Shown piece after piece: positions 33,023-64,000 of a DNA stretch of 64,000 nucleotides (the first letter of the stretch is position 1; each line of letters starts with the position of its first letter). The stretch covers positions 128 through 64,127 of the forward strand of contig SVGX01000003.1 of assembly GCA_015056105.1 (NCBI GenBank). Direction: 5' to 3'. A program made the position numbers and the translations under genes. The stretch comes from Clostridiales bacterium. Its GTDB lineage: Bacteria; Bacillota; Clostridia; Christensenellales; CAG-138. The notes beneath the pieces are model-generated. The model made no database searches and was not told where the DNA came from. It saw only the letters and a program-made list of their open reading frames with translations.

Positions 33023-33353
33023 TGGTCAATCCCGGGTTTCAAGCCGTTTTCCGTTGTTTGCATCCGCGGCGGTCAGGGCCCTGCCGTTGCCGGCGGCCGC
33101 GGTTCCGTGAAATCAGCCGCTTTGGTTTTTTGATATTACGAAGGCATTGATACCGTTCCGCAAAGGACCGCAAAATATATCACGCCGGATTTTTACCAGA
33201 TATGCATAAACAAGACAGCGGCGGCATATATTTGAAACAGTGCTGCCGCACAAATCGCAGCATCCGTTTGCCGCGGTGTGAACACCGTTCAAAACCCCGG
33301 CCTGCGGGGGAAAACCATAACATCGTCTTAACACTTTGCGGGAGGATAAAATC

Positions 33354-35498: not shown

Positions 35499-35663
35499 AA
35501 AACCGCGTGAAAAGGGATCATTTTAAGAGGATTGCGTTTTTCGCAGTCCTCTGCTCCGTTGGGAAACATGGAGCGTGACGGAATATGCCGCATCAAAAGC
35601 GTTCGGGATACCGCGTACAAGCGGCAGCGCCGCTGCGCGGGGCTATGCGGTTTTCGGGAGGTT

Positions 35664-38601: not shown

Positions 38602-41600
38602 ATGCGGTTTGTGATCATGGCCTATGCAAACGGCGCGTATGAGGAGTTTCGTTTGCCCGCGCTGAACGATGCGGATCATGAAATCCTGCTTTCTGCGGTG
38701 CGCTTTGGTTTGAAAAAAGACATTGCCCTGCGCTTTGAGGTGCTTTCCGGGGAGTGGAAAGTGCTTGGCGGCAAGGGCTATGCCCTGTTTGACCGGCAGG
38801 AGCAAAAGGAACAGCTGCCCCTTGCGGACGAGCTGACCTTCGGCGTCATCAGCGGTGCGGATCATGTGACGCTGATCGTGACCGGCGAGGCGGAAAGTCT
38901 GCCCTGCTTCCAGAAAATCGATATCTCCCGCCTGCGGGAGCTCACGGTGGGAAAACAGGAGGGCTGCCATATCCGCTATGATTTCCGTGGCCTTGTGAGC
39001 AAGCGCCATGCGGTGCTGGCAAGGGAGGCGGATGGTTCCATGCGCCTTACGGACCAAAGCACCAACGGCGTGTATGTGAACGGACAGCGGATACAGGGGG
39101 CAAGGCGCCTTGCTTTTGGCGATGTGATCAACATCCTCGGCCTGAAGCTCGTCTTCCTTGGCGATGCCCTCGGCGTGTATGCCCTTGGCAGGCAAGTGGA
39201 GATCGATCCGCGCATCCATATGCCCTATGTGCTGCCCCAAAGCGGCGAAAAGCAGCCCCCGGCGGAGGAGAGCCGCTTCAAGCGCGCCCCCCGCGCGGTG
39301 GAGGAGCTGCACCGGGAGCCGGTGGAGATCGAAGCGCCGCCGCCGCCCAACAAGCCGAAAAAGCAGCCGCTGCTGCTGACCATCGGCCCTGCCTTTACTA
39401 TGATGATCCCCATGCTGCTCGGTTCCGGCATGGCGATCTTCAGCGCCGGTGCCACCGGTATGGGAAGAAGTCCCTTCATGTTCACCGGCATTATCACGGC
39501 GGTATCCTCCGCTGCCATCGGCGTGATGTGGGCGCTCATCAACATGCGCCATGCGAAAAAGCAGCTTCGGGAGGATGAACTGCACCGCTTCAATGCTTAC
39601 CGGGATTATCTTGTCAGGATCGCGGATGAACTTAACGAGCAGTATCGGGATAACGCAAAGACCCTTAATGACCGCTATCCCTCCGCGGAGGCCTGTCTTC
39701 GTTACGGGGCGGATCCCACAAGGCTCTGGAACCGTAACTTTACCCATGATGACCTTCTTTTTGTGCGCCTTGGCATGGGCAGCATGCCCTTCCAGGTTCC
39801 CATCGGCATCCCTAAGGAGCGCTTTACGCTGGTGGATGATTCCCTTTCCGAAAAACCGAAGCAGATCTTTGATAGTTTCAGCACCCTGAGGGATGTGCCC
39901 GTGGGGGTGGACCTTGGGGCCGATCCCCTCTGGGGCATTTACGGCGGCGGCAGCATGGCGGAGGGCATCTCCGTGGCCCGCAGCATGGCTGTGCAGCTTG
40001 CGGCCAATACCTGCTATACGGATGTGAAGCTCGTCTTCCTTTACGAGAAGCAGTATGAGCGGGAATTTGCATTTGCAAAGTGGCTTCCCCATGTCTGGTC
40101 GGAGGATAAGAAGGTCAGGTATGTGGCTTCCGATAAAAACGAAGTCAGCGATGTGCTCTATGCCCTCGGCAGCACCCTCCGCATCCGTGCAGAGCAGGAA
40201 AACAGGCGCGGCGCCGCCCGCCCGCACTATGTGGTCTTTGTGTGCGACCCCGATCTTCTTGAAGGGGAACCGGCGGCAAAATATCTTCTTGAACCTGTGG
40301 AGGGGCTGGGCGTATCCACGGTGCTCATCGCGCCGGGCTATGAAGCGCTGCCCAACAGCTGCACCAACCTCATCGAACGGGATAAGCATTTTTGCGGTTT
40401 CTACGATGTGAGCACCGTGGAATCGAAAAAACGCGCCGTTGCCTTTGATGATGTAAGCGCCTTTGAGGCGGAGCGCTTTGCCCGCTGGCTTTCCGGCATT
40501 CGGGTAAAGGAGCTTGAGAGCGGCGGCGAGCTGGCGGATGCCGTTACCTTCTTCGATCTGTACGGCGTGCAGTCGTTGGCGGAGTTTGGCGTCATCGACC
40601 GTTGGCGCAAAAACAGAACTTATGAAAACATGCGCGCGCTGGTGGGCCAAAAGGCCGGCGGTGCCGATCTGTACCTTGATATCCACGAAAAATACCACGG
40701 ACCCCACGGCCTTGTGGCGGGCACCACGGGCAGCGGCAAAAGCGAAACGCTGCAGACCTATATGCTCTCCCTTGCCCTCAATTTCAGTCCGCTGGATGTG
40801 GGCTTCTTCGTCATCGACTACAAGGGCGGCGGCATGGCCAACCTGTTTTCCGACCTGCCTCACATGCTCGGGCAGATCTCCAACCTTTCCGGTAACCAGG
40901 TGCGCCGCGCCATGGTCAGCATCAAGAGCGAGATCAAGCGCCGCCAGCGCATTTTCGGCGAGTATGATGTGAACCATCTCGATCAGTATACGCGGCTGCT
41001 CAAAAACGGCGAAGCCGCCGTGCCGATCCCGCACATGGTCATTGTGATCGATGAGTTTGCGGAGCTCAAACGGGAAGAACCCGACTTTATGCGGGAACTG
41101 ATCAGCGTGGCGCAGGTGGGCCGAAGCCTGGGCATCCACCTGATCCTTGCCACCCAGAAGCCTGCCGGCACCGTGGATGACAACATCTGGAGCAACTCAA
41201 AATTCAAGCTCTGCCTCCGGGTACAGGATAAGCAGGACAGCATGGATATGCTCAAAAAGCCGGACGCTGCCTATATCACCCGGGCGGGCCGCTGCTACCT
41301 GCAGGTGGGCAACGATGAGATTTTCGAGCTTTTCCAGTCCGGCTGGAGCGGCGCGGCCTATGATGAGGATATGGCTGCCGCCAAGGCGGAAGTTGCCACC
41401 ATGCTTTCCAAAACGGGCCAGCCCAGCCTTGTAGGCAACCGCAGCAAGCTAAAATGGAAGGAGCAGAAGCGCCTCGGTTGGTTCAGCGAGATCTACGATT
41501 GCATCCTTGCCGCCGCCAAAGCGGAGAATAAGTCCCTTGATGCCATCCTTAAGGATGCACACGATAAGGATGCGGCGGTGGAAGCGGTGTTTGCCATGCT

Positions 41601-43566
41601 GGCCAATAAGGGGTATGAATACCCCGTCAGCCGGTATAACGCCAAGCGGCTGGAGGATTTCATGCTGCTGGCCGCCAAGGCGCAGGGCGTTGGTGATAAG
41701 GCAAAAACCCTTGATATCATCCGCAAAACCGCAGCCCTTGGCGGAATCAAACTGCCGGAGCTGAAGGAAAAGACCCAGCTTGCGGCGGTGGTGGAATACC
41801 TGAAGGAGCAGGCGGAAAAAAGCGGCATGAAGGCGGATCTGACGCTGTGGTTGCCGGTGCTGCCGGCGCGGCTGCACCTTGCGGAGCTTCAGGGCTTTGC
41901 GGGCGGTGCCTTCCGCAATGGCTGGCAGCCTGTTCTGCCCGGCCGCGAGTGGGAGCTGCGAGCCCCCGTGGGCCTTTGTGATGACCCGGTGAACCAGGCG
42001 CAGACGCCGGTGGAGGTGAACTTTGCGACCGATGGCCACATCGCCGTGTGCGGCATGGTGGTGAGCGGCAAAAGCACCTTCCTGCAGACGCTGCTCTACT
42101 CGCTGGCAAACCGCTATTCGCCGGAATATGTCAACTTCTATATCCTTGATTACAGCAGCAGGATGCTCGGCTGCTTCAAGGATCTCAAGCATTGCGGCGG
42201 CGTGGTCTTTGAAGACCGGAGCGACCGTACCGGCAAGCTCTTCGCCATGCTCAAAAAGGAGCTGGAACGCCGCAAAAAGCGCTTTGAGGGCGGCAACTAC
42301 GCCCAGTATGTGCGTGCCAACGGCCCCGTGGAGCCGGCGCTGCTGCTTGTGATCGACGGCTTTGCCAACTTTAAGGAAAAAACCGATAACCGCTATGAAG
42401 ATATGCTCATCGAGCTTTCCCGCGAGGGTGCCAATTACGGCATCTTCCTCGTGCTGTCGGCGGGCGGCTTTGGCGCGGCGGAGATCCAGAACCGCATCGG
42501 CGAAAACATCAAGACCGTGTTTGCGCTGCAGCTTGGCGACAGGCTCAAATACAGCGATACGCTGCGCCAGCGGGTGGATGTGATGCCGGAGGCGGATACC
42601 CTTGGCCGCGGCCTTGCGCTGGTGCAGGGAACGCCCCTTGAATTCCAGACCGCCCTTGCCCTTCCCGCAGAGGATGATTACGAACGGGCGGAGAAGATGG
42701 CGGCGGTGTTCGCGCGGATGAACGAAGCGTATCCGGGCAGGGGCGCAAAGCCCATCCCGGAGATCCCGGAAAAGCCCACTTTTGCTCTCCTGCGGGAAAA
42801 TGAGGGCTACAAAGTGCTGCTTGAAACGCCGGACCGCCTGCCCCTCGGCTACGTGGCGGCGGATGCGGATATTGCCGGCATCGATCTCAAACAATGCTTT
42901 ACGTACCTTGTGGCGGGGCAGGGCCGCACCGGCAAGAGCAATGCCCTTGCCTGCCTGATGCAGGCCGCCCATGACCGGGGCGGCAGCATCGCCGTGATCG
43001 ACAGCCGCAAAGGCGAGCTTGCCGCCATGGCGAAGGAGCTTGGCGCGCGCTATGTTTCCACCGAGGAAGAGCTTGCCGCCTTTGCGGGCGAGCTGTTTGA
43101 GCAGATGCGCGAGCGCAACAGCCTGAAGCGGGCGCTGCGGGCAAAGGGCGCGTCGGATGAGGAGATCTATGCGGCGATGCTCCAGTATCCCGCCTGCTAT
43201 CTCTTCATCGATGACATGGCGGAGCTGACGGAAACGCTGTATTCCGGCTCTGCGCAGATGCAGAACATCATCGGCTTTATGGAGAATTTCTTCGATAAGG
43301 GCGCGCTGCATAACATGTATGTGTTCGGCGCCGTGCCGCTTTCCGGCTACAGCATGGCCCTTGGCTACCGGGCTTTCCGCCTTGCGGCGGAACGGAAGAC
43401 CGGCCTGCTGCTTGGCGGCGATGCGGCGCGCCAGCAGCTGTTCGATCTTTCCGCGCTGCCCTATTCCGAGCAGACGAAGAAGTTCAGGCCGGGCATCGCG
43501 CTGCTGCCGCAGGACCATGAGCGGGAGCGGCCCGAAAAGATCGTGCTGCCCATTGCAAGAGGATGA
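38602..43566 (+). CDS. essC: type VII secretion FtsK/SpoIIIE-family ATPase EssC (YukB-like)
   Basis: 1654 aa. N-terminal FHA-like modules (LTVGKQEGCHIRYDFRGLVSKRHAVL...STNGVYVNG), 2 TM helices and three P-loop domains: GTTGSGKSE with VIVIDEFAEL, GMVVSGKST, and GQGRTGKSN with LFIDDMAEL. Confidence 0.9.
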   Translation: MRFVIMAYANGAYEEFRLPALNDADHEILLSAVRFGLKKDIALRFEVLSGEWKVLGGKGYALFDRQEQKEQLPLADELTFGVISGADHVTLIVTGEAESLPCFQKIDISRLRELTVGKQEGCHIRYDFRGLVSKRHAVLAREADGSMRLTDQSTNGVYVNGQRIQGARRLAFGDVINILGLKLVFLGDALGVYALGRQVEIDPRIHMPYVLPQSGEKQPPAEESRFKRAPRAVEELHREPVEIEAPPPPNKPKKQPLLLTIGPAFTMMIPMLLGSGMAIFSAGATGMGRSPFMFTGIITAVSSAAIGVMWALINMRHAKKQLREDELHRFNAYRDYLVRIADELNEQYRDNAKTLNDRYPSAEACLRYGADPTRLWNRNFTHDDLLFVRLGMGSMPFQVPIGIPKERFTLVDDSLSEKPKQIFDSFSTLRDVPVGVDLGADPLWGIYGGGSMAEGISVARSMAVQLAANTCYTDVKLVFLYEKQYEREFAFAKWLPHVWSEDKKVRYVASDKNEVSDVLYALGSTLRIRAEQENRRGAARPHYVVFVCDPDLLEGEPAAKYLLEPVEGLGVSTVLIAPGYEALPNSCTNLIERDKHFCGFYDVSTVESKKRAVAFDDVSAFEAERFARWLSGIRVKELESGGELADAVTFFDLYGVQSLAEFGVIDRWRKNRTYENMRALVGQKAGGADLYLDIHEKYHGPHGLVAGTTGSGKSETLQTYMLSLALNFSPLDVGFFVIDYKGGGMANLFSDLPHMLGQISNLSGNQVRRAMVSIKSEIKRRQRIFGEYDVNHLDQYTRLLKNGEAAVPIPHMVIVIDEFAELKREEPDFMRELISVAQVGRSLGIHLILATQKPAGTVDDNIWSNSKFKLCLRVQDKQDSMDMLKKPDAAYITRAGRCYLQVGNDEIFELFQSGWSGAAYDEDMAAAKAEVATMLSKTGQPSLVGNRSKLKWKEQKRLGWFSEIYDCILAAAKAENKSLDAILKDAHDKDAAVEAVFAMLANKGYEYPVSRYNAKRLEDFMLLAAKAQGVGDKAKTLDIIRKTAALGGIKLPELKEKTQLAAVVEYLKEQAEKSGMKADLTLWLPVLPARLHLAELQGFAGGAFRNGWQPVLPGREWELRAPVGLCDDPVNQAQTPVEVNFATDGHIAVCGMVVSGKSTFLQTLLYSLANRYSPEYVNFYILDYSSRMLGCFKDLKHCGGVVFEDRSDRTGKLFAMLKKELERRKKRFEGGNYAQYVRANGPVEPALLLVIDGFANFKEKTDNRYEDMLIELSREGANYGIFLVLSAGGFGAAEIQNRIGENIKTVFALQLGDRLKYSDTLRQRVDVMPEADTLGRGLALVQGTPLEFQTALALPAEDDYERAEKMAAVFARMNEAYPGRGAKPIPEIPEKPTFALLRENEGYKVLLETPDRLPLGYVAADADIAGIDLKQCFTYLVAGQGRTGKSNALACLMQAAHDRGGSIAVIDSRKGELAAMAKELGARYVSTEEELAAFAGELFEQMRERNSLKRALRAKGASDEEIYAAMLQYPACYLFIDDMAELTETLYSGSAQMQNIIGFMENFFDKGALHNMYVFGAVPLSGYSMALGYRAFRLAAERKTGLLLGGDAARQQLFDLSALPYSEQTKKFRPGIALLPQDHERERPEKIVLPIARG

Positions 43567-46217: not shown

Positions 46218-46466
46218 ATGATCATGGTGGATGTGCAGGTGCCGGCGCTGGATGCGTCCTATGATTTTTCCCTTTCGGAGCATGTGCGGGTCAGCGAGCT
46301 CATTGAGGAGATCGCCGAGATGATCTGCCAGCGGGAGAGGCTTCTTGCCCCGCGGGATATGGAAGGCTTCGCCCTTTGCGCCCCCGGCACGGGAGCTGTT
46401 CTGCCCAAGGGGCTCACCCTTTCCGAGTGCGGCGTGACAACGGGCAGCAAGCTGATGCTGCTTTAA
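46218..46466 (+). CDS. esaB: YukD/EsaB-like ubiquitin-fold T7SS protein
   Basis: 82 aa. VDVQVPALDASYDFSLSEHVRVSELIEEI...LSECGVTTGSKLMLL fits the EsaB/YukD pattern in size, beta-grasp periodicity and context. Confidence 0.7.
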   Translation: MIMVDVQVPALDASYDFSLSEHVRVSELIEEIAEMICQRERLLAPRDMEGFALCAPGTGAVLPKGLTLSECGVTTGSKLMLL

Positions 46467-46569: not shown

Positions 46570-46863
46570 ATGGATGTTTTTTTCTCGGCACATACCGGCG
46601 GTTTGCTGCAGGCGCAGGCGGAGTATGCCCGCTGCAGCGGCGTGCTGAGCGAAAAACTGCAGGAAGTTGAGCTTCTGAGCCGTCGCCTTGTCCCGATGAG
46701 GGGGCTGGAGGACTGCGCTGCGCAGCTGATCAAAAGCAAGGCGCAGCTGGAGGAAGCGCTTTTTACCCTTGGGCGGCTGCATGCCGTGCTGGAGGATGCG
46801 CTTACATCCTACCACGCCGCGGAGCGCAGCATCCAAGCGCGTTGCACCGATGGGGAAAGATGA
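46570..46863 (+). CDS. small helical-hairpin protein without WxG (T7SS-associated candidate)
   Basis: 97 aa with GAGGTG RBS, predicted all-helical with heptad-like pattern, and a C-proximal SYHAAE motif shared with neighbours. Confidence 0.55.
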   Translation: MDVFFSAHTGGLLQAQAEYARCSGVLSEKLQEVELLSRRLVPMRGLEDCAAQLIKSKAQLEEALFTLGRLHAVLEDALTSYHAAERSIQARCTDGER

Positions 46864-46923: not shown

Positions 46924-47229
46924 ATGGCAGGAGTCTTTGTTGAAGTCGATACAGCGCAGATGGAGCGGGATATTGAATCCGTAAAAGAGCGGCTTCAAGC
47001 GGTGCGCAGTGCGCTTGAAGCGGTATATGCGCAGATAGAAGAGCTGGACGCCATGTGGGATGGCCCCGCAAACGATGCATTCCGCAAACAGTTTGCGTCC
47101 GACCGGGAGGAGTTTGCTGCCATGTGCAAGGAGATGGACAGCCTCGTGGAAAGCCTGACTTACGCCAAGTGGGAATACGAAAAGTGCGAAAGCCGGGTGA
47201 ATGCAGCGGTGGCTGCTATTCGGGTCTAA
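46924..47229 (+). CDS. WXG100 family protein
   Basis: 101 aa with central MWDGPANDAF and C-proximal EYEKCE. Strong RBS. Confidence 0.75.
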   Translation: MAGVFVEVDTAQMERDIESVKERLQAVRSALEAVYAQIEELDAMWDGPANDAFRKQFASDREEFAAMCKEMDSLVESLTYAKWEYEKCESRVNAAVAAIRV

Positions 47230-47239
47230 GGAGGAAAGC

Positions 47240-47671
47240 ATGGAACACAAAGAGATCAACATCCCCTTTACCAACCCCGATTCCGGCAAGAGCCTGCTGT
47301 GGTTCCCGGAAAACCTGCTGGAGCAGATCGGCTCTGCCCTTACACACCTGAAAACAGCCACGATGACCATCCGTACCTCTCCTGAGGTAATGCAGGCAAA
47401 GGCTGCCGAGGTGCATACCGCTGCGGCGGAGATCCGCCGGGAGTTTGAAGATCTGATCCGCGCTGTGGAAAGAACATCCGCCTATTGGAACGGCAACGCG
47501 GCAGAGCAGCACCGCCGGCGCGCCGCTGCCATGAAACCCAAAGCGGAGGATATGATCGCCTGCCTTGAGCAGCATGCGGCAAACCTGCAGCAAATCGCAG
47601 GCCTTTATACGGCGGCGGAAACAAAGGCGAAAAGCACGAGCGCTGCACTGCCCACGGATGCCATCGAGTAG
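47240..47671 (+). CDS. WXG100-like protein with about 40-aa N-terminal extension
   Basis: Start after AAGGAGGAAAGC. YWNGNAAEQH motif, LYTAAE, and C-terminal tail ALPTDAIE. Confidence 0.7.
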   Translation: MEHKEINIPFTNPDSGKSLLWFPENLLEQIGSALTHLKTATMTIRTSPEVMQAKAAEVHTAAAEIRREFEDLIRAVERTSAYWNGNAAEQHRRRAAAMKPKAEDMIACLEQHAANLQQIAGLYTAAETKAKSTSAALPTDAIE

Positions 47672-47682
47672 GAGGAAAGCGG

Positions 47683-47997
47683 ATGAAAACGAAAGCCGAG
47701 ATCGAGTTCAATTTTGAACAGGCGCGCCGCAGGGCTGCAGAGCTGGAGGAGATCGCACAGGATCTTGAAAGCCTTGCCAAAAGGGATATGGAGAACACCA
47801 GGGCGGAGCTTGCCGCCGCCTGGAAGGGGGAGAGCGCACAGCTTTTCTGCGGCAAAAGCGATAAGCTGCAGCAGGATATCGCTTCAACGGCAAAGGAGCT
47901 TGCGGCCGTAGCCGGCTCCATCCGTGAGATCGCCCGCCTTGTTTATGAGGCGGAGATGCAGGCGCTTCAGATCGCCGCACAGCGGGACTATGTATAA
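47683..47997 (+). CDS. WXG100 family protein
   Basis: 104 aa with AWKGESAQLF motif. AGGAGGAAAGCGG RBS. Confidence 0.7.
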   Translation: MKTKAEIEFNFEQARRRAAELEEIAQDLESLAKRDMENTRAELAAAWKGESAQLFCGKSDKLQQDIASTAKELAAVAGSIREIARLVYEAEMQALQIAAQRDYV

Positions 47998-48094
47998 CGA
48001 TCGCTTCGGCGCGAAGCGATGAAGAGGAAACCGGCGCTCCTTTTAGGGGGCGTAACAATACAGAGACCATCAATCCAACAGGAGGAAGAGAACC

Positions 48095-48400
48095 ATGGCA
48101 AACGGATATGTTGTTACCACTGCAGCCCTTCGCCGCACGGCACAGGAGCTCAGGGATCTGAACAGCCAGTACAGGACCCGTGTGGAATCCCTTGCGGGCC
48201 TTGAGCAGGAGCTGCGCAGCATGTGGGAGGGCGAGGCAAACATCGCGTTTCAGCATGCATTTGCCAGCGATAAGGTAAACCTTGACAATTTCTATTCCGT
48301 CATTGAGCGGTATGTGCAGGCGCTTGAGACTGCTGCTGCGGAATATGAAAAGGCAGAAGCGCAGGCCACCCAGACCGCAACCACCCGCACCTATCGCTGA
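48095..48400 (+). CDS. WXG100 family protein
   Basis: 101 aa with MWEGEANIAF motif and EYEKAE. CAGGAGGAAG RBS. Confidence 0.75.
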   Translation: MANGYVVTTAALRRTAQELRDLNSQYRTRVESLAGLEQELRSMWEGEANIAFQHAFASDKVNLDNFYSVIERYVQALETAAAEYEKAEAQATQTATTRTYR

Positions 48401-48439
48401 TAGGGTGCAGCCGGAGCAACGAGCGAAAGGAGACAAATC

Positions 48440-48754
48440 ATGGATGGTATTTTGAAAGTAACGCCTGCTGCACTGCGGGCAAAATCCGGTGAATTCGATC
48501 AGAACAGGGCTGCTGTGCGCGGTCTCATCGAGCAGATGAATGCCAAGGTCAGCGGTATGAACTCCGTTTGGCAGGGCGATGCGGCCACGGCCTATCAGAC
48601 TTCCTATAACGGCCTTCGCGATGACATTGAGCGAATGGACCGCATGATCGCCGAGCATGTGCGCGATCTCAACGAGCTGGCGGATGTTTATGCCAGGGCG
48701 GAGAGCGCAGTGGAAGCTGCCGCGCAGGCGCTTCCCAAGGATGCGATCCAGTAA
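48440..48754 (+). CDS. WXG100 family protein (most EsxA-like member)
   Basis: 104 aa. ILKVTPAALRAKSGEF..., VWQGDAATAY with W at residue 44, VYARAE, and C-terminal tail ALPKDAIQ. Confidence 0.8.
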   Translation: MDGILKVTPAALRAKSGEFDQNRAAVRGLIEQMNAKVSGMNSVWQGDAATAYQTSYNGLRDDIERMDRMIAEHVRDLNELADVYARAESAVEAAAQALPKDAIQ

Positions 48755-50775: not shown

Positions 50776-52119
50776 ATGGCTGAGTTTTATGTCAAATCGG
50801 AAGGCCTTGACGCCTGTGCTGTGCGGTATGGGAAGCATACCGTGCAGCTTATGCATGCGCAGGATCGGATCCGCACCGTCAGAAATAAGCTGAGCGGCGC
50901 CTTGTGGGAAAAGTCCGGCCTGCGGGACAGCCTGAAAAAAACCGCTTCCGCCTGCGGTGACGGCGCTGCGGCCGCAGGCAAAATGGGGGTGGCGCTTTCC
51001 AAAGCCGCTAATTTATACAGCAAATGCGAGCGCGGCATCATCGCCTATGAAAAGGTGCAAAGGGAGCAGGAAGCGCTGAACGGGAAACATGAGGAGCTGC
51101 TTGCCTTTGTCAACGATCCCTACAGCAGTATCCTTTTTATCGATTTTAACCGCTACAGCGAGGAGATCAGCAATCTTGGCTTTAGTGATGCGTTGCTGCT
51201 GGCCGTCAATAACGGCTTTGGCCTGGATATCCTCATCGGAAATCTGCAGGGCAAGGATTACGAGACGGAGGTCATCAAAAGTCAGCTGGCGCAGATCCTC
51301 TGCAATATGGAGGGGCGAAGCGGCACCCTTGAAGTGCCAGATGAGGTCAAACTCCTTGTGGAGGGGCTGCAGGCGGGCGCCGAAAAGGGCCTTGAAAACG
51401 CGGATGACATCGCGGCGTTCCTTGCGGAAGCGGGCTTGAAGGATATCGATCCGAAGATACTCAAACAATACGCGGATATCCTCGACAAAGTGGATATCGG
51501 CCTCATTCTCGAATCCGGCGAAAAAGGCGTGCAGCTTCTCCAGTATGCCTTGACCGATTACCGGGAAAGCATCAAGACCCTTGAAGCTTTCCGCCAATTC
51601 GGCGGGGAAGGAAGCGTCAACGCGGCGGTGGATGATATGATCGCCCTGTATCAGAACAAGTTTATCGGCAGCCTGCAGCAAACGGCGGAGTTCGTGCATG
51701 AAAAAGTGGTGGAAAAGGGCGCGGAACTGGCCTTTGACGCGATGACGGGCGGCCTTTACAGCGCGGTGGATTTCGGCACGGAGCTTTTGATGGAGTTTTC
51801 CGGCCTGAGCGACACTGCGGATGCGAAGGAGTCGCTTATGGGCAACGCGATCCTTGAATACGATGTTTCTTCGGCCTATTCCGAGGCGCTCGAAGCCCTG
51901 CGGGACGGCAGCTTTACCGAGGCGGATGTGGATACCGCAAAGCGCATGTTCGAAATGCAGAAATCCATCAAGATCGCACAGTATGAAAACCTGCTGACGA
52001 TTTGTGATGATGCGCCCAGGGAAACAAAAAATGCCATCAAAAGCGAACTGGAGTTTATCAAATCGCTGCAAATGGATGTGGAGAGCATCGGGGCGGTGAA
52101 GCAAAGAAGAAATCAATAA
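50776..52119 (+). CDS. 447-aa all-helical protein with WXG100/LXG-like N-terminal hairpin (candidate T7SS substrate or adaptor)
   Basis: No signal peptide. The N-terminal 100 aa are helical, with LYSKCE at the end of the hairpin. The rest has no motif I recognise. Confidence 0.5.
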   Translation: MAEFYVKSEGLDACAVRYGKHTVQLMHAQDRIRTVRNKLSGALWEKSGLRDSLKKTASACGDGAAAAGKMGVALSKAANLYSKCERGIIAYEKVQREQEALNGKHEELLAFVNDPYSSILFIDFNRYSEEISNLGFSDALLLAVNNGFGLDILIGNLQGKDYETEVIKSQLAQILCNMEGRSGTLEVPDEVKLLVEGLQAGAEKGLENADDIAAFLAEAGLKDIDPKILKQYADILDKVDIGLILESGEKGVQLLQYALTDYRESIKTLEAFRQFGGEGSVNAAVDDMIALYQNKFIGSLQQTAEFVHEKVVEKGAELAFDAMTGGLYSAVDFGTELLMEFSGLSDTADAKESLMGNAILEYDVSSAYSEALEALRDGSFTEADVDTAKRMFEMQKSIKIAQYENLLTICDDAPRETKNAIKSELEFIKSLQMDVESIGAVKQRRNQ

Positions 52120-52142
52120 GGCATTGCCGGAAAGTTGACCCC

Positions 52143-52958
52143 ATGAAGAAAAAAATATGCGCAGCTGTTTGCGCTTTGATCATATTATTGTTGGCGGCGG
52201 GCTGCGGCACGCTGCCGGAAACCTTTGAAAATGAGAAAGAGATCGGACAGGAGGACAATATGGAAACGGTAAAGCTGACCAACGAGGAAAAAGAACTGCT
52301 TTGCAGCATGTATTCCGGAGAGGAGCGTATCTGCCGGGGCGATCTGCTGGACCATGAGATCGCGCTGCTGGAGCAGCTTCGTTTCGGCATGTCCTACCTG
52401 TCGGAAAAATACCCGAAGCATCGCTTTGAAATGACCGCCTGCATCCCGCAGGGCAAAATGGAGACGCATACCACCGTGTCCGTCTGTGCCGAAGGGGTGG
52501 ATGGCGTTTACACGCTGCGCCTTGAGACGCTCCCGGACGGTACATACCTTGCGGAGGATGATTTTTATGCTGTCACCATCCGGGAGGAATATACCGCCAT
52601 GCTCCGGGCTGCCGCCAAAGCGGCCGTGGCCGGGACCCTTGGCGTGTGGGCGGAGTTTCCGGGCCTTTACGGCATGGAATGCGGCGCTGCAGGATATGAC
52701 CTTGCAGCCGCCGCAAAGGATGGCAGCATGGTGTTTGCGGAGTGCGCCGTGTATGTGGACGGCCGCAGCGATGCTGCGCCCGATGCCGTTTCGGCAGCGC
52801 TGAAACAGGCGCTGGCGGATAAAGGCTTCCGCGGTAACTTCTATGTCTATGTGCTGGAAGAAGTGCCCGAGGACGATATCACGGATGAAGCCCTTCGTGC
52901 CTTTGTGAAGGAAAACGTGGGCGCCGATGCTTATGTGCGCGAAAAGTTTTCGCTGTAA
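52143..52958 (+). CDS. lipoprotein of unknown function (candidate immunity protein)
   Basis: MKKKICAAVCALIILLLAAGC lipobox. Sits between the helical protein and the hydrolase gene. Confidence 0.6.
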   Translation: MKKKICAAVCALIILLLAAGCGTLPETFENEKEIGQEDNMETVKLTNEEKELLCSMYSGEERICRGDLLDHEIALLEQLRFGMSYLSEKYPKHRFEMTACIPQGKMETHTTVSVCAEGVDGVYTLRLETLPDGTYLAEDDFYAVTIREEYTAMLRAAAKAAVAGTLGVWAEFPGLYGMECGAAGYDLAAAAKDGSMVFAECAVYVDGRSDAAPDAVSAALKQALADKGFRGNFYVYVLEEVPEDDITDEALRAFVKENVGADAYVREKFSL

Positions 52959-52982
52959 GCGGCGGGAGAGGAGGGCTATACC

Positions 52983-54632
52983 ATGGCACTGAGCAAAGAA
53001 CAGCTGCTGCTGCTTAACAACCTTATGTATCTTCCGGATATAAAAGCGGAGGATGGGCACCCCGTCAGCTATCCGATCCATAAGCTGCCCGATGATTATC
53101 AGACCGTGGGGGATATCGTCAACAACCTGCAGGCGAATTATGCCCATGTCGACAACAAAGGGGAATACGGCTCCTATACCTCCGGAACGGACTGGAAAAA
53201 CCTCATCAATGCCATCTCGCAGGATGAAACGCTGATGAACATGCAGATCGTTGCCACCCATGTGGATAATGGCCCCACCGGAGGCGGCGGTAAAAGCGCC
53301 CTGTTTGTGGACCCTGCAAACGGCGAAGCGGTAGTCACCTTCCGTGGCACAGCCAGCGGCGAGTGGAAGGATAACTTCGTGGGCGGCACCGCCACCAACG
53401 CGGCGGATGGTGTATCCACCCCCCACCAGCAGAACGCCCTTGATTGGTATGAGAGCCTCGATCTGTCCGGCTATGAGACCGTTACCGTCACCGGCCATTC
53501 CAAGGGCGGCAACAAGGCGAAGTATATCACCCTGATGGATGATTCGGTGGACCGCTGCGTTTCCTTTGACGGGCAGGGCTTTTCCGATGAATTTATCGAG
53601 AAATACGGCGATGCCATCACCATGCGCCAGCATAAGATCGAAAACCACAACGTGGATGGCGACTATGTCAACATGCTCCTCAACGATGTGGGCGAGACCT
53701 ATTATTACGATGCCTTCCGCGGCACGGACAGCTTCCTTGAAAACCACTGCCCCAATACGTTTTTCAAGTTTGACGCAAACGGCAACCCCGTCATGGTGCC
53801 GGGTGAGCGCTCGCCGGTGATCGCGGCGGTGGATGAGTTCCTCAACAGCCTGCTGCGCTCCGCTTCCCCTGCTCTCAAGAAACAGCTTCTTACCTTTGCG
53901 GGCGAGCTTGCGGACTGCGCCCTTGCGGGTGATTTTTCCGTTGATGACCTGATGGTCATCCTGCGGGATGAGGATTCCGTGGAAGCTGCCGGTTATCTTA
54001 TTGCCTATTTGCTGGAATACCCCACGGCCAATGCGGCCCATGACATCAAACAGTTCCTTTCCGATGTGGGGCTTGGCGATCTCAACTGGATCATCAGCGG
54101 CGTGGAGAAGCTGCTTGATTCGGATATTGCCGCCTGGATCGTGGAGCAGATCGCCGATGGCGGGGCCTGGGCGGTGGATGCCATTCCCGACTGGCTGTAT
54201 AAAAAGATAACGGGCTTTTTCGGCATCGATCTCAAAAAAGAGGATATCGTGTTCGTGCTGCAGCTGGTGGGTGCCACCTTTGATGCCAAGCAGCAGATCG
54301 AAGTGGTACCGGATTCCGGCAAGGATATCAGCCTGCCTTCCCTCGGGGGCACGCCTGCCTGCTTCAGCGTATATGCGGATACTCTGCGTGCGGCGGCGGA
54401 AAAGCTGGGGGAGGCCTCCTTTGACCTTGCCCGCAGTGCGGATGCCGTAACGGTGCAGCGGAAAAAGACGAGCCTTTTCCTCGGCGTGATCCGCATCCGC
54501 CTCGGCAGCATTGCAAGAAAGCTCGACAAGCAGAGCACCAAAGCCCGCAAAATGCAGAATACCCTCGCAAGCGTGGCAGAGCTGTATGAGAAGGCGGAAA
54601 AAGCCGCCGCAGCCCACGCAAACACAAAATAA
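52983..54632 (+). CDS. DUF2974/Mbeg1-like alpha/beta hydrolase (lipase/esterase fold) with C-terminal WXG/LXG-like helical domain
   Basis: VVTFRGTASGEWKDNF...TVTGHSKGGNKAKY (GxSxG). No signal peptide. The C-terminal 110 aa are helical and end ...ASVAELYEKAEKAAAAHANTK. Confidence 0.7.
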   Translation: MALSKEQLLLLNNLMYLPDIKAEDGHPVSYPIHKLPDDYQTVGDIVNNLQANYAHVDNKGEYGSYTSGTDWKNLINAISQDETLMNMQIVATHVDNGPTGGGGKSALFVDPANGEAVVTFRGTASGEWKDNFVGGTATNAADGVSTPHQQNALDWYESLDLSGYETVTVTGHSKGGNKAKYITLMDDSVDRCVSFDGQGFSDEFIEKYGDAITMRQHKIENHNVDGDYVNMLLNDVGETYYYDAFRGTDSFLENHCPNTFFKFDANGNPVMVPGERSPVIAAVDEFLNSLLRSASPALKKQLLTFAGELADCALAGDFSVDDLMVILRDEDSVEAAGYLIAYLLEYPTANAAHDIKQFLSDVGLGDLNWIISGVEKLLDSDIAAWIVEQIADGGAWAVDAIPDWLYKKITGFFGIDLKKEDIVFVLQLVGATFDAKQQIEVVPDSGKDISLPSLGGTPACFSVYADTLRAAAEKLGEASFDLARSADAVTVQRKKTSLFLGVIRIRLGSIARKLDKQSTKARKMQNTLASVAELYEKAEKAAAAHANTK

Positions 54633-60211: not shown

Positions 60212-62749
60212 ATGAAACACACCATGAAAAAAGCCAATGCACTGATACTGGCGGCGCTTTTCGTTTTTACACTGCTCCCCATGTCTGCCATGGCAGGCGT
60301 CAGCACCGAATATATCGGTATGACCGGCGTAAGCTTCAGCCATAACATGTTCATCGACGGCACATGTGAAACCGAGTGGGAGGGCAGTGCCGAGCAGCCC
60401 ATGCTGTCTCTTTTGGTGTACAGCACCGATACCCTTCCCACCGATGCATCGGGCAATTACCGTTTTCCCATCAACATCACGCTTCAAAAGCCTGCCGGCA
60501 TTTCTGAGGATGCGCTGCCATTCCTTCTTGAAAGCGATCATGCTTACTCCGCCTCCCCGCTGCCTTTCGGTTCCACATCGCAGCAGATCGATCTTATTGC
60601 CGACAAAGAGACTTTTACAGAAAGCTTCGTTGTCGGCGAACTGGTCATCCACTGGCTGGAAGGCACCGACATCGCCGCCGTTACCAAACTTTCCTACGGC
60701 ATATTCAACAAAACAGGCCCCGCTGTCAGCGCTCCCGATGGCAGCCGCGTCAGCTTCGCCTTCCCCATTGATGGCGTAGCGTCCGAGTACAGCAACGGCA
60801 CGCTGACGCTCACTTTGAACGAGACATCCGTTGATCAGATCGCCGCGGTGTATACCCCGGGACTTCAGTTCCTGCGCGGCACAGTCAGCGTGAGCGCACC
60901 CTCCGGCACCGAATCGTTCTGGGCCGGAAGCATGGACCATGCCTATTTTACAAACGGGTACATCAACAGCTCCAACTATAAAACCGGCAGCGGATATTCC
61001 CACGCCATCGACCTGCACCAGATCAATTCTTCCGATTCCGGCATAACCGTTATTCCCCTTGACAACGCAGGCAACAACAACGTCATCTCCCTGTATTTTG
61101 CATGGAAGGACAGCTCCGGCAGCATCACCGCCGAAAAAGTGAATGTTGTTGTCAAGCTCGGCACTGCAAAGGTTACGAAAGTGCCTTCCTCCGCATTGCC
61201 TGCCATTTGCGCAGTGCCCGCCGACCGCATGGCCCGCGCTTCGTTAATGATGGACCGTGCCGACGGCGCCGGCATCACCTTCAGCTATTCCGAGACCGAC
61301 GGCATTGCAAAGTTTTTCCACAGCAAAACGCCTGCCGCCATTTCGGAATATGCATTTTCAAAGGCCGGTGAGTGGGGCGATAAGGAAGCCCTCATCCCCC
61401 TGGGTGTACAGATCACGGCTCCCGATGGATTTGATACCTATGCCCTCATCATTAACGGCAGCGAAAGTGCCCCCTCGCCTGTTGACAGGAAGCTGAAGGC
61501 CATGTTTTACTCTACCGTGCTGTTTTCCGCGCGGAACGGCATTACGACAGATGATACGGATATCACCATAAAGTGGACGTCCACGACCTCCAATGCTGTG
61601 AAGTACGAGCTCTTCACTTTCTGCACCATCTTTGACAGCTTTACCTGGATGGATAAATACTGGGCACCAGCACCCGCTGCCGCTTTGGAGACCAAACCTA
61701 TTGTGGAAGCTTTGAAAGACGCAGGCCTTGAAGTGAAAGTTGAAACGGGAGCGATCAAGTGCTCCTTCAAAGAGGGCTACCTTCCCACCGTTGCGCAAAT
61801 GCAGAAGATCCGAGGTGCCGAGTTTACCGTCACAGCGCCTGCCAATGCCGCAGCCAAGCGCATTGCGGGTTCTTCCTACAATGATACCGCTTACAATGAC
61901 AGCCGTGCCAACAGCGCAAAATCTACCATAGACAGCACACCTGCTCTTGCTATCGACACCATGTGCGGCGGTATCTGCCCTATTCAGAAGGTTGAAATAG
62001 ACGGCATTTCCTACTACAACACGCTGAATGACGGTGCAAGGCAGGTGCTCGTTCAGTTTTATGATAATGCAGGCAATCTGATCACAGTTGACGGCGCAAA
62101 CGGTGAAAAGCTGAACGGCTATTATGTCCGCATCGAAGTTGAACCCTTTGAATACACGATCGAATCGGAAGTTGTGCCGGAGATAACCTCCCCTGCCGAT
62201 ATTCCCGTTATGGTATGCGAGCGTAAGCCCGGCAATAAATACAGCCTGTTCGTTAAGCTTTATCCCCAGGAAGGCAGCAACAAAAAGTACTTCCTTAAGC
62301 TTGAGACAGATCTGGAAGAGTCCGATATGCAAAACGGCGTTGATGTTTACATCCCCTATCACTACATCGACCCCAATATGACCTATGAAAAGGCCATTGC
62401 CGACAATACCGTCTTCAAGGTCAAGCATTATGACAAGCATAACACCTTCAAGGAGGAGCTTGTCGGTACACCCACGGAAAACGGCATCAAATTCACCGTT
62501 ACGGATCTCAGCCCCTTTGTGATTGAGGCTGCCGAAGGCTCCGGCAGCAACAGCGGATCCGGTCCGCTTTACGGAGATGCCAACTGCGATGGCGAATATA
62601 ACCTGCAGGACGTGGTATTTGTGGCTGTCTGTGCAAAAGGAAACGCTGCCATCACCGAGGCCGGCAGACTTAATGCGTCGATCGCAGCAGGTGCCGCACC
62701 TACCGCGCTTGATTCCCTACGGCTGGCAAAAGGACTGCTGTTCCAATAA
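60212..62749 (+). CDS. large secreted protein with C-terminal dockerin-like Ca-binding module
   Basis: Signal peptide MKHTMKKANALILAALFVFTLLPMSAMA. The body (about 780 aa) has no motif I recognise. The C-terminus has LYGDANCDGEYNLQDVV (DxNxDGxxxxxD loop), but the second loop is degenerate. Confidence 0.6.
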   Translation: MKHTMKKANALILAALFVFTLLPMSAMAGVSTEYIGMTGVSFSHNMFIDGTCETEWEGSAEQPMLSLLVYSTDTLPTDASGNYRFPINITLQKPAGISEDALPFLLESDHAYSASPLPFGSTSQQIDLIADKETFTESFVVGELVIHWLEGTDIAAVTKLSYGIFNKTGPAVSAPDGSRVSFAFPIDGVASEYSNGTLTLTLNETSVDQIAAVYTPGLQFLRGTVSVSAPSGTESFWAGSMDHAYFTNGYINSSNYKTGSGYSHAIDLHQINSSDSGITVIPLDNAGNNNVISLYFAWKDSSGSITAEKVNVVVKLGTAKVTKVPSSALPAICAVPADRMARASLMMDRADGAGITFSYSETDGIAKFFHSKTPAAISEYAFSKAGEWGDKEALIPLGVQITAPDGFDTYALIINGSESAPSPVDRKLKAMFYSTVLFSARNGITTDDTDITIKWTSTTSNAVKYELFTFCTIFDSFTWMDKYWAPAPAAALETKPIVEALKDAGLEVKVETGAIKCSFKEGYLPTVAQMQKIRGAEFTVTAPANAAAKRIAGSSYNDTAYNDSRANSAKSTIDSTPALAIDTMCGGICPIQKVEIDGISYYNTLNDGARQVLVQFYDNAGNLITVDGANGEKLNGYYVRIEVEPFEYTIESEVVPEITSPADIPVMVCERKPGNKYSLFVKLYPQEGSNKKYFLKLETDLEESDMQNGVDVYIPYHYIDPNMTYEKAIADNTVFKVKHYDKHNTFKEELVGTPTENGIKFTVTDLSPFVIEAAEGSGSNSGSGPLYGDANCDGEYNLQDVVFVAVCAKGNAAITEAGRLNASIAAGAAPTALDSLRLAKGLLFQ

Positions 62750-62847
62750 GAATAACACGGAAGGTGAATTGCCAAACTTCGTGCAACCGGCAGAAAGTTC
62801 AAAGCCACAGAGAAACTGAGCAGAGCGAAATGGAAGAACCTTACGGG

Positions 62848-62880
62848 ACCCGGCGGTGAGCAACGCCGGGTTCTTTTTTA
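62848..62880 (+). terminator. rho-independent terminator
   Basis: acccggcg / cgccgggt 8-bp stem followed by TCTTTTTT. Confidence 0.75.
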
Positions 62881-63027
62881 GCGCTCCGTGCCACGCAGAA
62901 AATGAGGCCCTTGAGGTAAAACATGCAAAGCGGTGCTGATCGCGTTGTTTATTTTTGTCATGCATGGCAGCATGGATCCCTTTCTGCAACTTCCATATAT
63001 GCACCAATATACGCGTTATTTTAAAAA

Positions 63028-63048
63028 TGCAGTAAATTTGTAGTAAAT
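63028..63048 (+). repeat. two direct TG(C/T)AGTAAAT repeats 11 bp apart
   Basis: tgcagtaaat (63028-63037) and tgtagtaaat (63039-63048). The same 9-mer is clustered at 63740-63783. Confidence 0.6.
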
Positions 63049-63434
63049 CGGCATGAATGTGTGAGAATTTGGGCCACAGATTTGAGAATAGAATCGAGGT
63101 AAAAGCACCCCGGTTTTTGCATCGCTGCAGCAGAATATGGCGTATAGTTCTGAAAAGCAAAAAACCGGAAAAGCGCTTGTTTCTCTGGTTTTTTACGCAC
63201 TTTGCACGATTATCCGCCCGCATTTTACCGCAAATAAAAAAGATATTGTGATGCATGCTGCGCCGCAGGCGCATGCCGCAAAAGGTTGGTAGCGCAGCGG
63301 AGGCGTTATGCCTGCGTTTACAAGGGCATAGCCGCAGCAAGCGTGACCTTTTGCGGAAAGGAGGAGCGACGGAACGGGTGAGAGATGATTTTTGATAAAA
63401 AATCGTCGCGAACTAAGAGTAGTCCGCGACGACG

Positions 63435-63453
63435 TGGCACACCCGGCGCGATT
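63435..63453 (-). repeat. 19-nt duplicate of the tRNA 3' end (secondary att-like repeat)
   Basis: tggcacacccggcgcgatt is identical to 63588-63606. Confidence 0.7.
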
Positions 63454-63562
63454 ACCCAAGGGTATCCCTCCGACTAACAAAAATTCATCGCCTAAGGCTC
63501 GAATTTTTGAAGTCTCCGGTATCTCACGGCGCGTTCTCATCTGCTGCCGCGGCAAACAAAAA

Positions 63563-63587
63563 AGCCATCGTAAGATGGCTCTTTTGT
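63563..63587. terminator. stem-loop flanked by A- and T-runs (bidirectional terminator-like)
   Basis: agccatc-gtaa-gatggct with AAAAAA upstream and cTTTTgTTT downstream. Confidence 0.6.
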
Positions 63588-63632
63588 TTGGCACACCCGG
63601 CGCGATTCGAACGCGCGACCTTCCGCTTAGGA
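63588..63632 (-). pseudogene. 3' half of a tRNA (anticodon loop to CCA; anticodon CCU, Arg-like), an att core remnant
   Basis: The minus strand reads ctCCTaa-gcgga-aggtc-gcgcg-TTCGAAT-cgcgc-cgggtgt-g-CCA. The upstream 31 nt cannot form the acceptor or D arms. Confidence 0.7.
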
Positions 63633-63739
63633 GGCACATGCCCTGCCATGGGCAAAACCATAGAGAATCACCGAAAAAATCCCTGTTTACGGGCTTTTTC
63701 TGCATTTCTATCCTGTCCATAGTTTCCATAAAAGTCGGG

Positions 63740-63783
63740 TTTACTACAGGATTTACTACAGCGTGTGTAGTAAAAATGTAGTA
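63740..63783. promoter_or_regulatory. cluster of four TGTAGTAAA sites (two inverted, two direct): candidate integrase arm-type or repressor sites
   Basis: tttactaca (63740-48) and tttactaca (63752-60), a 5-bp spacer, then tgtagtaaa (63766-74) and tgtagta (63777-83). The middle pair is a perfect 9-bp inverted repeat. Confidence 0.55.
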
Positions 63784-63796
63784 TAGCCACGGAAGA

Positions 63797-64000
63797 TTAC
63801 GGCTTATCCAGATGCGCGTTCAGCGAATCGATGGCGGCGTTCTGCTTGAAGCGGGAAAGATGGGTGTAGATGCCCAGCGTCATCTCAAGGCTTGCGTGAC
63901 CTAGGAACAACTGCGCACTTTTCACATCCACGCCCGCATCGTAGAGCATGGTTGCGTAGCTGTGCCGCAGCATGTGCGCGGTGATGTTGTCGATGACCTG
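63797..64000 (-). CDS. tyrosine recombinase/phage-type integrase (C-terminal 67 aa; 5' part outside the window)
   Basis: Manual reverse translation gives ...ITAHMLRHSYATMLYDAGVDVKSAQLFLGHASLEMTLGIYTHLSRFKQ...DKP*, with the HxLRH, GH and catalytic Y motifs. Confidence 0.85.
   Translation of the reverse strand, partial: QVIDNITAHMLRHSYATMLYDAGVDVKSAQLFLGHASLEMTLGIYTHLSRFKQNAAIDSLNAHLDKP

Follow-up and report, generated by a model that had tools for sequence, protein, structure and literature searches.

Reverse type VII secretion system (T7SS) effectors, in which an N-terminal enzyme is followed by a C-terminal helical domain of export type, have been described in two families only, TslA and TslM, both of which are staphylococcal phospholipases secreted by a T7SSb (PMC10730906, PMC13560087). 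TslA (2023; Tsl1 family) of the Staphylococcus aureus T7SSb has the lipoprotein TilA as its immunity protein and TlaA1 and TlaA2 as partners; TslA was reported to lack WXG- and LXG-type motifs, and TlaA1 and TlaA2 to lack a clear F/YxxxD/E motif (PMC10730906). TslM (2026; Tsl2 family), the second reverse family, has the DUF1433 membrane protein TilM and the partner TlaM (PMC13560087), and the reported template for both enzymes is Yarrowia Lip2, 3o0d (PMC10730906, PMC13560087). Reverse lipases at T7SSe and T7SSg loci were mentioned in passing by Garrett et al. in 2024, and the supplement of that paper lists DUF2974 proteins 74 times among EssC neighbors (PMC11217815). Moreover, DUF2974 domains occur in antibacterial Rhs effectors of the type VI secretion system (T6SS) and in antibacterial X-T4SS effectors (PMC11854122, PMC6536674). 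In this study, we analyzed a stretch of 64,000 nucleotides from a Clostridiales bacterium (GCA_015056105.1, contig SVGX01000003.1, positions 128 to 64,127), referred to below as the window, in which a trio of genes encodes proteins of 447, 271, and 549 amino acids (aa). We read the trio, with a probability of about 0.6, as cargo of a T7SS of the kinase/phosphatase/FHA type: the 549-aa protein would be a reverse lipase effector analogous to TslA and TslM, the 271-aa lipoprotein its immunity protein, and the 447-aa protein a separate substrate.

The features of the trio are as follows, in window coordinates; HP denotes the C-terminal hairpin of the 549-aa protein and its relatives, AF2 denotes AlphaFold2, and the evidence, including open reading frames (ORFs) and hidden Markov models (HMMs), is given in brackets.

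50776..52119, + strand: all-helical 447-aa protein, candidate second T7SS substrate in canonical orientation (ORF; AF2)
50779..51048, + strand: HP hairpin at the N-terminus of the 447-aa protein (residues 2-91), its Y81xxxE85 encoded by 51016-51030 (hhalign, HP HMM)
52143..52958, + strand: 271-aa lipoprotein, conserved partner and candidate immunity protein, with signal peptide and lipobox at 52143-52205 and Cys21 (lipobox; synteny)
52983..54632, + strand: 549-aa serine hydrolase of the Mbeg1-like/DUF2974 family ending in an export hairpin, candidate reverse T7SS substrate (ORF; PF11187; AF2)
52983..53807, + strand: alpha/beta-hydrolase domain of class-3-lipase fold, residues 1-275 (AF2, Foldseek)
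53499..53501, + strand: codon of Ser173, the predicted nucleophile in GHSKGG (invariant; confirmed in the window sequence)
53661-53663 and 53745-53747, + strand: codons of the predicted Asp227 and His255 (invariant in 68 sequences)
53814..54290, + strand: compact helical middle domain, residues 278-436 (AF2 short helices)
54375..54626, + strand: C-terminal helix-turn-helix hairpin HP, residues 465-548, without WxG (AF2 helices H465-495 and H498-548; hhalign)
54585..54599, + strand: Y535-E-K-A-E539, a YxxxE export-type motif (conservation; alignment with the WXG100 profile)

Comparison with described effectors

Like TslA, the 549-aa protein has an N-terminal enzyme of lipase fold with a similar Ser-Asp-His spacing (S173/D227/H255, against S164/D224/H251 in TslA; PMC10730906), a helical, EsxA-related targeting region at its C-terminus, no Sec signal, and an adjacent extracytoplasmic lipoprotein. 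In contrast, its enzyme scores as PF11187 and not as a class-3 lipase, so that the likeness is one of working principle. Its tag consists of one hairpin, of WXG100 size, in which YxxxE is conserved and neither an LxG nor a GxL motif is present, and the protein carries an extra helical domain of 160 residues. The 271-aa lipoprotein, which has no Pfam family, resembles Til1 solely in being a lipoprotein. Furthermore, the window pair, unlike TslA, has no adjacent pair of small partner genes and no large immunity arrays, and the window T7SS differs from the T7SSb of TslA in giving no EsaA, EssA, or EssB matches among the proteins scanned. The analogy to TslA had been proposed in an earlier sequence-only reading of this DNA; context supports it for the working principle (reverse arrangement, T7SS cluster, and co-inherited lipoprotein) but not for the enzyme family, which is PF11187 and not the lipase type reported for TslA.

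TslM is likewise a reverse lipase of similar length (536 versus 549 aa), with a lipase domain at about residues 1-270 and one helical C-terminal targeting domain. However, the place of the folded helical domain of the 549-aa protein is taken in TslM by an unstructured linker, and TslM immunity comes from a signal-anchored DUF1433 protein rather than a lipoprotein. TslM also carries an LFG motif, and a single WXG100 partner is encoded beside it; TslM is staphylococcal and island-borne, whereas the 549-aa protein belongs to gut Clostridia. The candidate reverse lipases noted in PMC11217815 lie, like the window pair, beside non-b T7SS variants with kinases, phosphatases, and FHA proteins; that paper neither defines a family for them nor analyzes a tag, and it describes no lipoprotein partner and no gut lineage of Clostridia.

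For the tag itself, the closest comparison is with WXG100 proteins such as EsxA and EsxB and with the Lap partners, which have a C-terminal YxxxD/E. The 549-aa hairpin aligns with them end to end and keeps the YxxxE position, but its WxG turn is deleted and it is fused C-terminally to a large enzyme. For the enzyme, the DUF2974 effectors of the T6SS (Rhs) and X-T4SS and the T6SS Tle lipases (7ubz/9cys) have the same or a similar hydrolase domain and, as is proposed for the window pair, are delivered antibacterial effectors with an immunity protein, while their secretion system, delivery domain, and immunity family all differ from those of the window pair. Collectively, when set against the descriptions of TslA and TslM, the 549-aa family differs from both in enzyme family, tag, helical domain, partner family, and T7SS type.

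The 549-aa protein has a lipase-like hydrolase domain

The three ORFs were verified on the + strand at 50776-52119 (447 aa), 52143-52958 (271 aa), and 52983-54632 (549 aa), separated by 23-24 base pairs, and the gene calls for the trio in a JGI metagenome (3300031555, contig Ga0318466_10008281) are identical. The sequence-only reading had placed the ORFs at these positions, and had described the last one as a reverse-arranged protein without a signal peptide and with a DUF2974/Mbeg1-type core, and the middle one as a lipoprotein. All of this holds, and the profile and structure comparison with Mbeg1-like proteins that it suggested gave the PF11187 match and the lipase/esterase fold reported below. 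The motifs FRGT, GHSKGG, and LYEKAE are all found in the 549-aa protein, whose C-terminus is ...AELYEKAEKAAAAHANTK. No hydrophobic N-terminal segment was seen; the highest 19-residue Kyte-Doolittle mean is 1.34 and is internal.

The 549-aa protein matches the Pfam family PF11187, Mbeg1-like (formerly DUF2974), at residues 112-214 with 35.0 bits against a gathering cut-off of 21.1, and PF11187 is also matched by 68/68 aligned homologs. The staphylococcal 'SA1320 family' of NCBIfam gave 16.9 bits against a cut-off of 230, which is sub-threshold and does not amount to membership. Across the 68 aligned sequences, G171-H-S173-K-G-G176, D227, and H255 are invariant, and S173-D227-H255 form the predicted catalytic triad. 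Two cysteines of the hydrolase domain, C192 and C256 (the latter in ENHCPN, beside the predicted His255), are also invariant or nearly so.

The AF2 model of the 549-aa protein (predicted local distance difference test (pLDDT) 88.4; predicted template modeling score (pTM) 0.79) is divided into the hydrolase at residues 1-275, a compact helical domain at 278-436, an extended linker, and the hairpin H465-495/H498-548. In the helical middle domain, pLDDT by block is ~78-93, with a dip to ~61 around residues 391-400. Foldseek matched the enzyme domain to feruloyl esterase A (1uza, E 3e-5), the mono/diacylglycerol lipase 5xk2, and Yarrowia Lip2 (3o0d), as well as to an Enterobacter T6SS lipase effector (9cys, E 8e-4). 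Lip2, being also the reported template of TslA and TslM, is a structural neighbor shared with them and the one indirect link to their sequences. By sequence, a single-sequence search of the PDB with the 549-aa protein gave just a weak, non-significant match, to the T6SS lipase effector 7ubz. The family is large: more than 900 clusters of full-length homologs of 520-590 aa were found, mainly in Lachnospiraceae and other Clostridia, and a scan of species-representative genomes gave 540 relatives in total, with tagged and untagged classes counted together.

The C-terminal hairpin is related to WXG100 proteins

To compare the C-terminus with WXG100 proteins, a WXG100 profile was built from the WXG100 proteins of these loci. 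The last ~95 residues of the hydrolase family align with this profile end to end in hhalign with a probability of 97% (E 4e-11), and reversed and column-shuffled controls reached probabilities of 18% or less. In this alignment, the YxxxE of the hydrolase hairpin falls on the YxxxE of the WXG100 profile, and five columns of the profile, corresponding to the W-x-G turn, are a gap in the hairpin. Y535 and E539 are each conserved at 90% or more, and the remaining hairpin sequence is variable; in the 500-600-aa class, 32/41 proteins have a YxxxE within the last 32 residues. Other searches were less sensitive. Pfam EspC gave a weak, sub-threshold match at residues 462-548 of the 549-aa protein, the Pfam WXG100 model was matched by just 1/68 members of the hydrolase family, and a PDB search with the family profile gave coiled-coil noise together with weak end-to-end EsxA/EsxB matches that are not significant alone. 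Judged from these alignments, the hydrolase tag is a single WXG100-derived hairpin of WXG100 size that has kept YxxxE and lost WxG.

The sequence-only reading had noted a helical C-terminal domain ending in LYEKAE and had called it LXG-like. The helical hairpin is borne out by the AF2 model; the LXG label, which stands for a domain of ~200 residues with an LxG turn, is not. Neither the 549-aa nor the 447-aa protein gave a match to the LXG domain (PF04740), and the label was therefore dropped. The tag has the size of a WXG100 protein, and residues 278-436, the middle domain, show no similarity to the WXG100 profile (probability 0.5%).

Related hairpins occur elsewhere. The HP HMM matches three kinds of protein, namely the 447-aa protein at its N-terminus, a 97-aa protein, and variable 270-490-aa proteins of related loci at their N-termini. 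In the window locus, the HP module thus stands free (97 aa), N-terminally (447 aa), and C-terminally (549 aa). Counterparts of ~119 aa of the 97-aa HP protein, for which no Pfam match was found, directly follow YukD in many related loci, and we regard the 97-aa protein as a candidate pairing partner for HP-tagged cargo. In total, six small hairpin genes sit 2-6 kilobases (kb) upstream of the lipoprotein-hydrolase pair in the window.

The lipoprotein partner follows the tagged hydrolase

The 271-aa protein begins with MKKKICAAVCALIILLLAAGC, that is, MKKK, a hydrophobic stretch, and LAAGC, a signal peptide ending in a lipobox with Cys21. Neither this lipoprotein nor 35 of its homologs has a family in Pfam, and hence it is not detectably Til1 (DUF576) or Til2 (DUF1433). 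A word-indexed search with the lipoprotein returned a 99%-identical copy alone. In all homolog contexts inspected, a protein of 250-320 aa that is 24-28% identical to the lipoprotein is encoded directly upstream of the hydrolase. Among 41 distinct hydrolases of 500-600 aa drawn from species-representative genomes and metagenomes, 39 have a lipoprotein homolog directly upstream. These counts, like those below, rest on simple ORF calling and HMM thresholds over fetched flanks.

The partners of hairpin-bearing hydrolases have a hydrophobic N-terminus, either a lipobox or an anchor, in 41/50 cases, with a strict lipobox in 24. In contrast, none of the nine partners of the ~812-aa class, which has no hairpin, has a hydrophobic N-terminus. 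The localization of the partner thus tracks the class of the hydrolase. This speaks for an encounter of the two proteins within one compartment, so that the hydrolase, when tagged, would end up extracytoplasmic, where the lipoprotein is. In six loci (e.g., L033 and L046), extra partner copies or tandem duplicated pairs are present.

The association with T7SS genes runs one way

We asked how often T7SS genes lie near the hydrolase and how often the hydrolase lies near T7SS genes. EssC, YukD, or WXG100 genes were found within 10 kb of 23/41 hydrolases of 500-600 aa, and of 19/28 when only those with at least 12 kb of flank are counted; for the ~812-aa hydrolases without a tag, the count is 0/27. 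For the reverse direction, we sampled 80 metagenomic loci with an EssC 40-50% identical to that of the window, 44 of which have at least 8 kb downstream. YukD is present in 44/44 of these and at least four WXG100 genes (usually five) in 43/44, while a Mbeg1-like hydrolase is found in 3 and a lipoprotein fragment, at a locus edge, in 1. Given the 10-kb flank, 3/44 is a lower bound, yet 12/15 mapped pairs lie within 9 kb of EssC. The hydrolase is tied to the T7SS and the T7SS is not tied to the hydrolase, so the lipoprotein-hydrolase pair appears to be accessory cargo and not machinery. The sequences of the closest syntenic relative, L008, were also compared. In keeping with cargo, the trio is 45-56% identical between the two loci, against 72-85% for EssC and the TPR-type kinase. 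The WXG100 genes also reach 72-85%, with the exception of one of the five, at 56%.

Two contigs with a Firmicutes-type T7SS and the pair (L039 and L045) are filed as 'Prevotella sp. CAG:279' and 'Alistipes onderdonkii'; these labels probably reflect binning contamination and not a T7SS in Bacteroidota.

The 447-aa protein is more likely a separate substrate

The AF2 model of the 447-aa protein is all-helical (pLDDT 74) with an N-terminal helix-turn-helix, H8-38/H49-89, and Foldseek of this model against the PDB gave nothing with E <0.2. Its N-terminus aligns with the hydrolase hairpin profile in hhalign (probability 97%, E 7.6e-11, 30% identity over 88 columns), and the HP HMM matches its N-terminal 91 residues with E 1.5e-12. 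Three relatives of the protein came from a word-indexed search, and L008, which is syntenic, encodes one of them; for the C-terminal ~330 residues, exhaustive searching with HMMER yielded ~100 remote relatives. Many remote relatives retain the N-terminal hairpin with YxxxE, and in some cases the C-terminal domain forms the end of a surface protein of BspA-LRR, Cu_amine_oxidN1, or VWA type. Several homologs in the alignment have glycine-rich C-terminal tails, for example GGGGGGRF or GGGGRF, and the window protein has no such tail.

Across 167 loci, an HMM of the C-terminal domain found that domain in the window and in L008 and in none of the other 165, and a helper role conserved with the hydrolase was rejected on this ground. 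A second T7SS substrate in canonical orientation is the more likely reading of the 447-aa protein. Of the earlier description of this protein, the WXG-like N-terminal hairpin is therefore retained and the role of partner is not, as the protein lies next to the pair just in the window and in one close relative.

The locus encodes a T7SS of a non-canonical type

The remaining T7SS features of the window are listed below.

38602..43566, + strand: T7SS ATPase of the EssC type, FHA domain at the N-terminus (NCBIfam TIGR03928, 1030 bits, cut-off 778; Pfam FtsK_SpoIIIE and FHA)
46218..46466, + strand: YukD/EsaB-like ubiquitin-fold T7SS protein (Pfam PF08817, E 1e-12)
46570..46863, + strand: 97-aa protein consisting of an HP hairpin alone, encoded by the small gene that comes first after YukD (HP HMM, E 1e-9)
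46924..48754, + strand: five tandem WXG100 paralogs at 46924-47229, 47240-47671, 47683-47997, 48095-48400, and 48440-48754 (Pfam PF06013)

Between 36877 and 62749, every gene lies on the + strand, and the genes are densely packed. From 36877, the order is a VWA-FHA protein, the EssC ATPase with FHA, an RCC1/TPR lipoprotein, the YukD-like protein, the 97-aa protein, the five WXG100 paralogs, a TPR lipoprotein, and the trio (447/271/549 aa), followed by a pair of Ser/Thr kinases, of which the one has RCC1 and the other TPR repeats, a PP2C phosphatase, and an 855-aa protein without a family match. The RCC1 and TPR parts of the two kinases are extracellular, and the cluster has two RCC1/TPR lipoproteins in all. 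The WXG100 paralogs have one-to-one orthologs in related loci, and one HP gene together with five WXG100 paralogs is the hallmark of this type of T7SS. Because EssA, EssB, and EsaA gave no match among the cluster proteins scanned, the window T7SS does not appear, by its gene content, to be a canonical T7SSb; it resembles the kinase-, phosphatase-, and FHA-associated variants T7SSc-j of PMC11217815.

Several further observations were made in the window. An antisense ORF of 810 aa (52185-54617, minus strand) runs across the lipoprotein and hydrolase genes without homology support; it is probably a by-product of the 55-58% guanine-cytosine (GC) content, and comparable long antisense ORFs occur at other places in the window. 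Directly upstream of the T7SS cluster, 33336-36506 encodes a 720-aa protein with a thioester domain (TED) and, after it, a sortase; the former is probably a surface adhesin and the latter the sortase dedicated to it. Toward the other end, GC drops to ~0.50 at 62000-64000 and, on the source contig, a phage-type integrase gene starts near the window end (L001 20815-21650, roughly window 63797 onward), which may mark the edge of an integrated element.

Related hydrolase variants

The ~812-aa Mbeg1-like class occurs in Acholeplasmatales, Anaeroplasma, and some Lachnospiraceae (loci L051, L053-L060, L062-L064, L066, L068, L070-L072, L074-L076, L078-L084, and L087). Its C-terminus differs, with no YxxxE hairpin, and no T7SS genes lie nearby. 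Where a partner homolog is present, it has no signal peptide and is presumably cytoplasmic. Hydrolases of 403-457 aa in reverse arrangement, with C-terminal WXG/HP domains, were found in L102 (20176-21387), L121 (14818-16191), and L124 (1015-2313); those in L102 and L121 adjoin proteins with a hydrophobic N-terminus and extra small WXG-like genes, a layout closer to that of TslA and TslM. In L073 and L086 (Pseudobutyrivibrio), members of ~473 aa have a hydrophobic, transmembrane-like tail, ...FLVFGAIMATVAWVIIWLLRL, in place of the hairpin, which suggests a tail-anchored variant. Among the carriers of tagged pairs is a cultured strain, Anaerosporobacter faecicola KCTC 15857 (L033), which has two tandem pairs.

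Discussion

The domain architecture, the fold, the hairpin homology, the obligatory pairing with a lipoprotein, the strong one-way association with the T7SS, and the match between tag and partner localization are observed, and from them we infer export, substrate, toxicity, and immunity of the pair as follows. The 549-aa protein would be made in the cytoplasm without a Sec signal, and its C-terminal hairpin with YxxxE would probably pair with one of the small hairpin proteins of the locus. The hairpin would then direct the folded hydrolase to the EssC ATPase, so that export is tail-tagged, in the reverse arrangement. Outside the cell, the Ser173-Asp227-His255 site would hydrolyze an ester, the likeliest substrate being phospholipid in the membranes of competing bacteria. 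The 271-aa lipoprotein, anchored to the producer membrane on its outer face, would bind and block the enzyme as an immunity protein. The 447-aa protein, with its N-terminal hairpin, would be exported as a separate substrate in canonical orientation.

Several observations weigh against this mechanism. No small WXG-like partner gene lies beside the pair, either in the window or at stand-alone pairs, unlike for TslA and TslM, and about a third of pairs have no T7SS gene within 10 kb. Immunity-gene arrays are rare (6 loci). The hydrolase domain, at 40-57% identity across families, is less variable than typical polymorphic toxins. Finally, the lipoprotein could instead be a foldase, activator, or anchor and not an inhibitor.

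This last point leads to the alternative that survives best, which we nevertheless consider unlikely. The hydrolase would be exported by the T7SS, the lipoprotein would serve it from the membrane as a foldase, activator, or docking protein, much as the lipase-specific Lif foldases do in proteobacteria, and the targets would be host, dietary, or own envelope lipids, so that the pair would not be antibacterial. The conservation of the hydrolase beyond what is usual for a toxin and the strict one-to-one pairing with few immunity arrays are consistent with such a role, and the cytoplasmic partner kept by the untagged long forms fits an obligate cofactor equally well. However, T7SS substrates are generally exported in a folded state, which would make a post-export foldase needless. 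The lipoprotein also changes faster than the enzyme (24-28% versus 40-45% identity), as immunity proteins do, and duplicated pairs and extra partner copies exist. With respect to the target, the founding member, Mbeg1, came from an NF-kB host-cell screen (PMC6867899) and DUF2974 domains are also found in Sec/YSIRK surface proteins, both of which fit a non-antibacterial enzyme, whereas the closest functional precedents join reverse lipases with extracytoplasmic inhibitors (PMC10730906, PMC13560087).

A second alternative concerns the 447-aa protein, which might be a Lap/Tla-like helper whose N-terminal hairpin pairs with the C-terminal hairpin of the hydrolase to form a composite secretion signal. 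WXG100-type hairpins are typically dimers, the hairpins of the 447-aa and 549-aa proteins are homologous (probability 97%, 30% identity), and the trio is syntenic in its closest relative, L008. We nonetheless judge such a helper improbable. Its family is missing from the other hydrolase loci and from the 80 EssC-side loci and is rare in databases, so that most pairs do without it, and its 350-residue domain is seen on Sec-exported surface proteins, unlike the small cytoplasmic Lap partners.

It is more doubtful still that the 549-aa protein is a cytoplasmic esterase with a hairpin for oligomerization and a merely coincidental proximity to the T7SS; we consider this very improbable. The missing signal peptide and the occurrence of some pairs away from T7SS genes are what such an enzyme would show. 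Against it, T7SS markers lie within 10 kb in 19/28 cases, compared with an expectation of well under 1% for random genes, the hairpin is homologous specifically to WXG100 proteins, export motif included, and the extracytoplasmic features of the partner follow the presence of the hairpin. The least probable reading, in which the pair is a conserved structural or envelope-remodeling part of this T7SS variant, with the mycosin of ESX systems as a parallel, draws on the fixed position of the pair directly after the WXG100 array in many hydrolase-side loci and on a divergence of the hydrolase roughly at the EssC rate over long distances, but it is largely refuted by the EssC-side scan, in which the hydrolase lies within 10 kb in 3/44 loci and the lipoprotein in 1, against 44/44 for YukD. 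In addition, some pairs stand well away from every T7SS gene.

We therefore return to the pair as a T7SS-exported lipase effector with a lipoprotein immunity protein. Beyond the window, we propose, more tentatively and at somewhat less than even odds, that these hydrolases make up a third and widespread reverse T7SS effector family in gut Clostridia, lipase-like and with its own lipoprotein immunity family, and that the WXG100-derived YxxxE hairpin is a portable tag that works independently of its position. If true, a third reverse family would be added that has another hydrolase family, a simpler YxxxE tag, and a new lipoprotein partner and belongs to the T7SS of abundant gut anaerobes, and the open puzzle of why reverse substrates are lipases would be strengthened. 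This T7SS variant would moreover recognize its tag at either end of the cargo, with natural side-by-side examples, and the cultured carrier A. faecicola KCTC 15857 makes the idea testable. For the Lachnospiraceae and Oscillospiraceae, it would mean a lipid-targeting activity that is directed at other bacteria or at the host.

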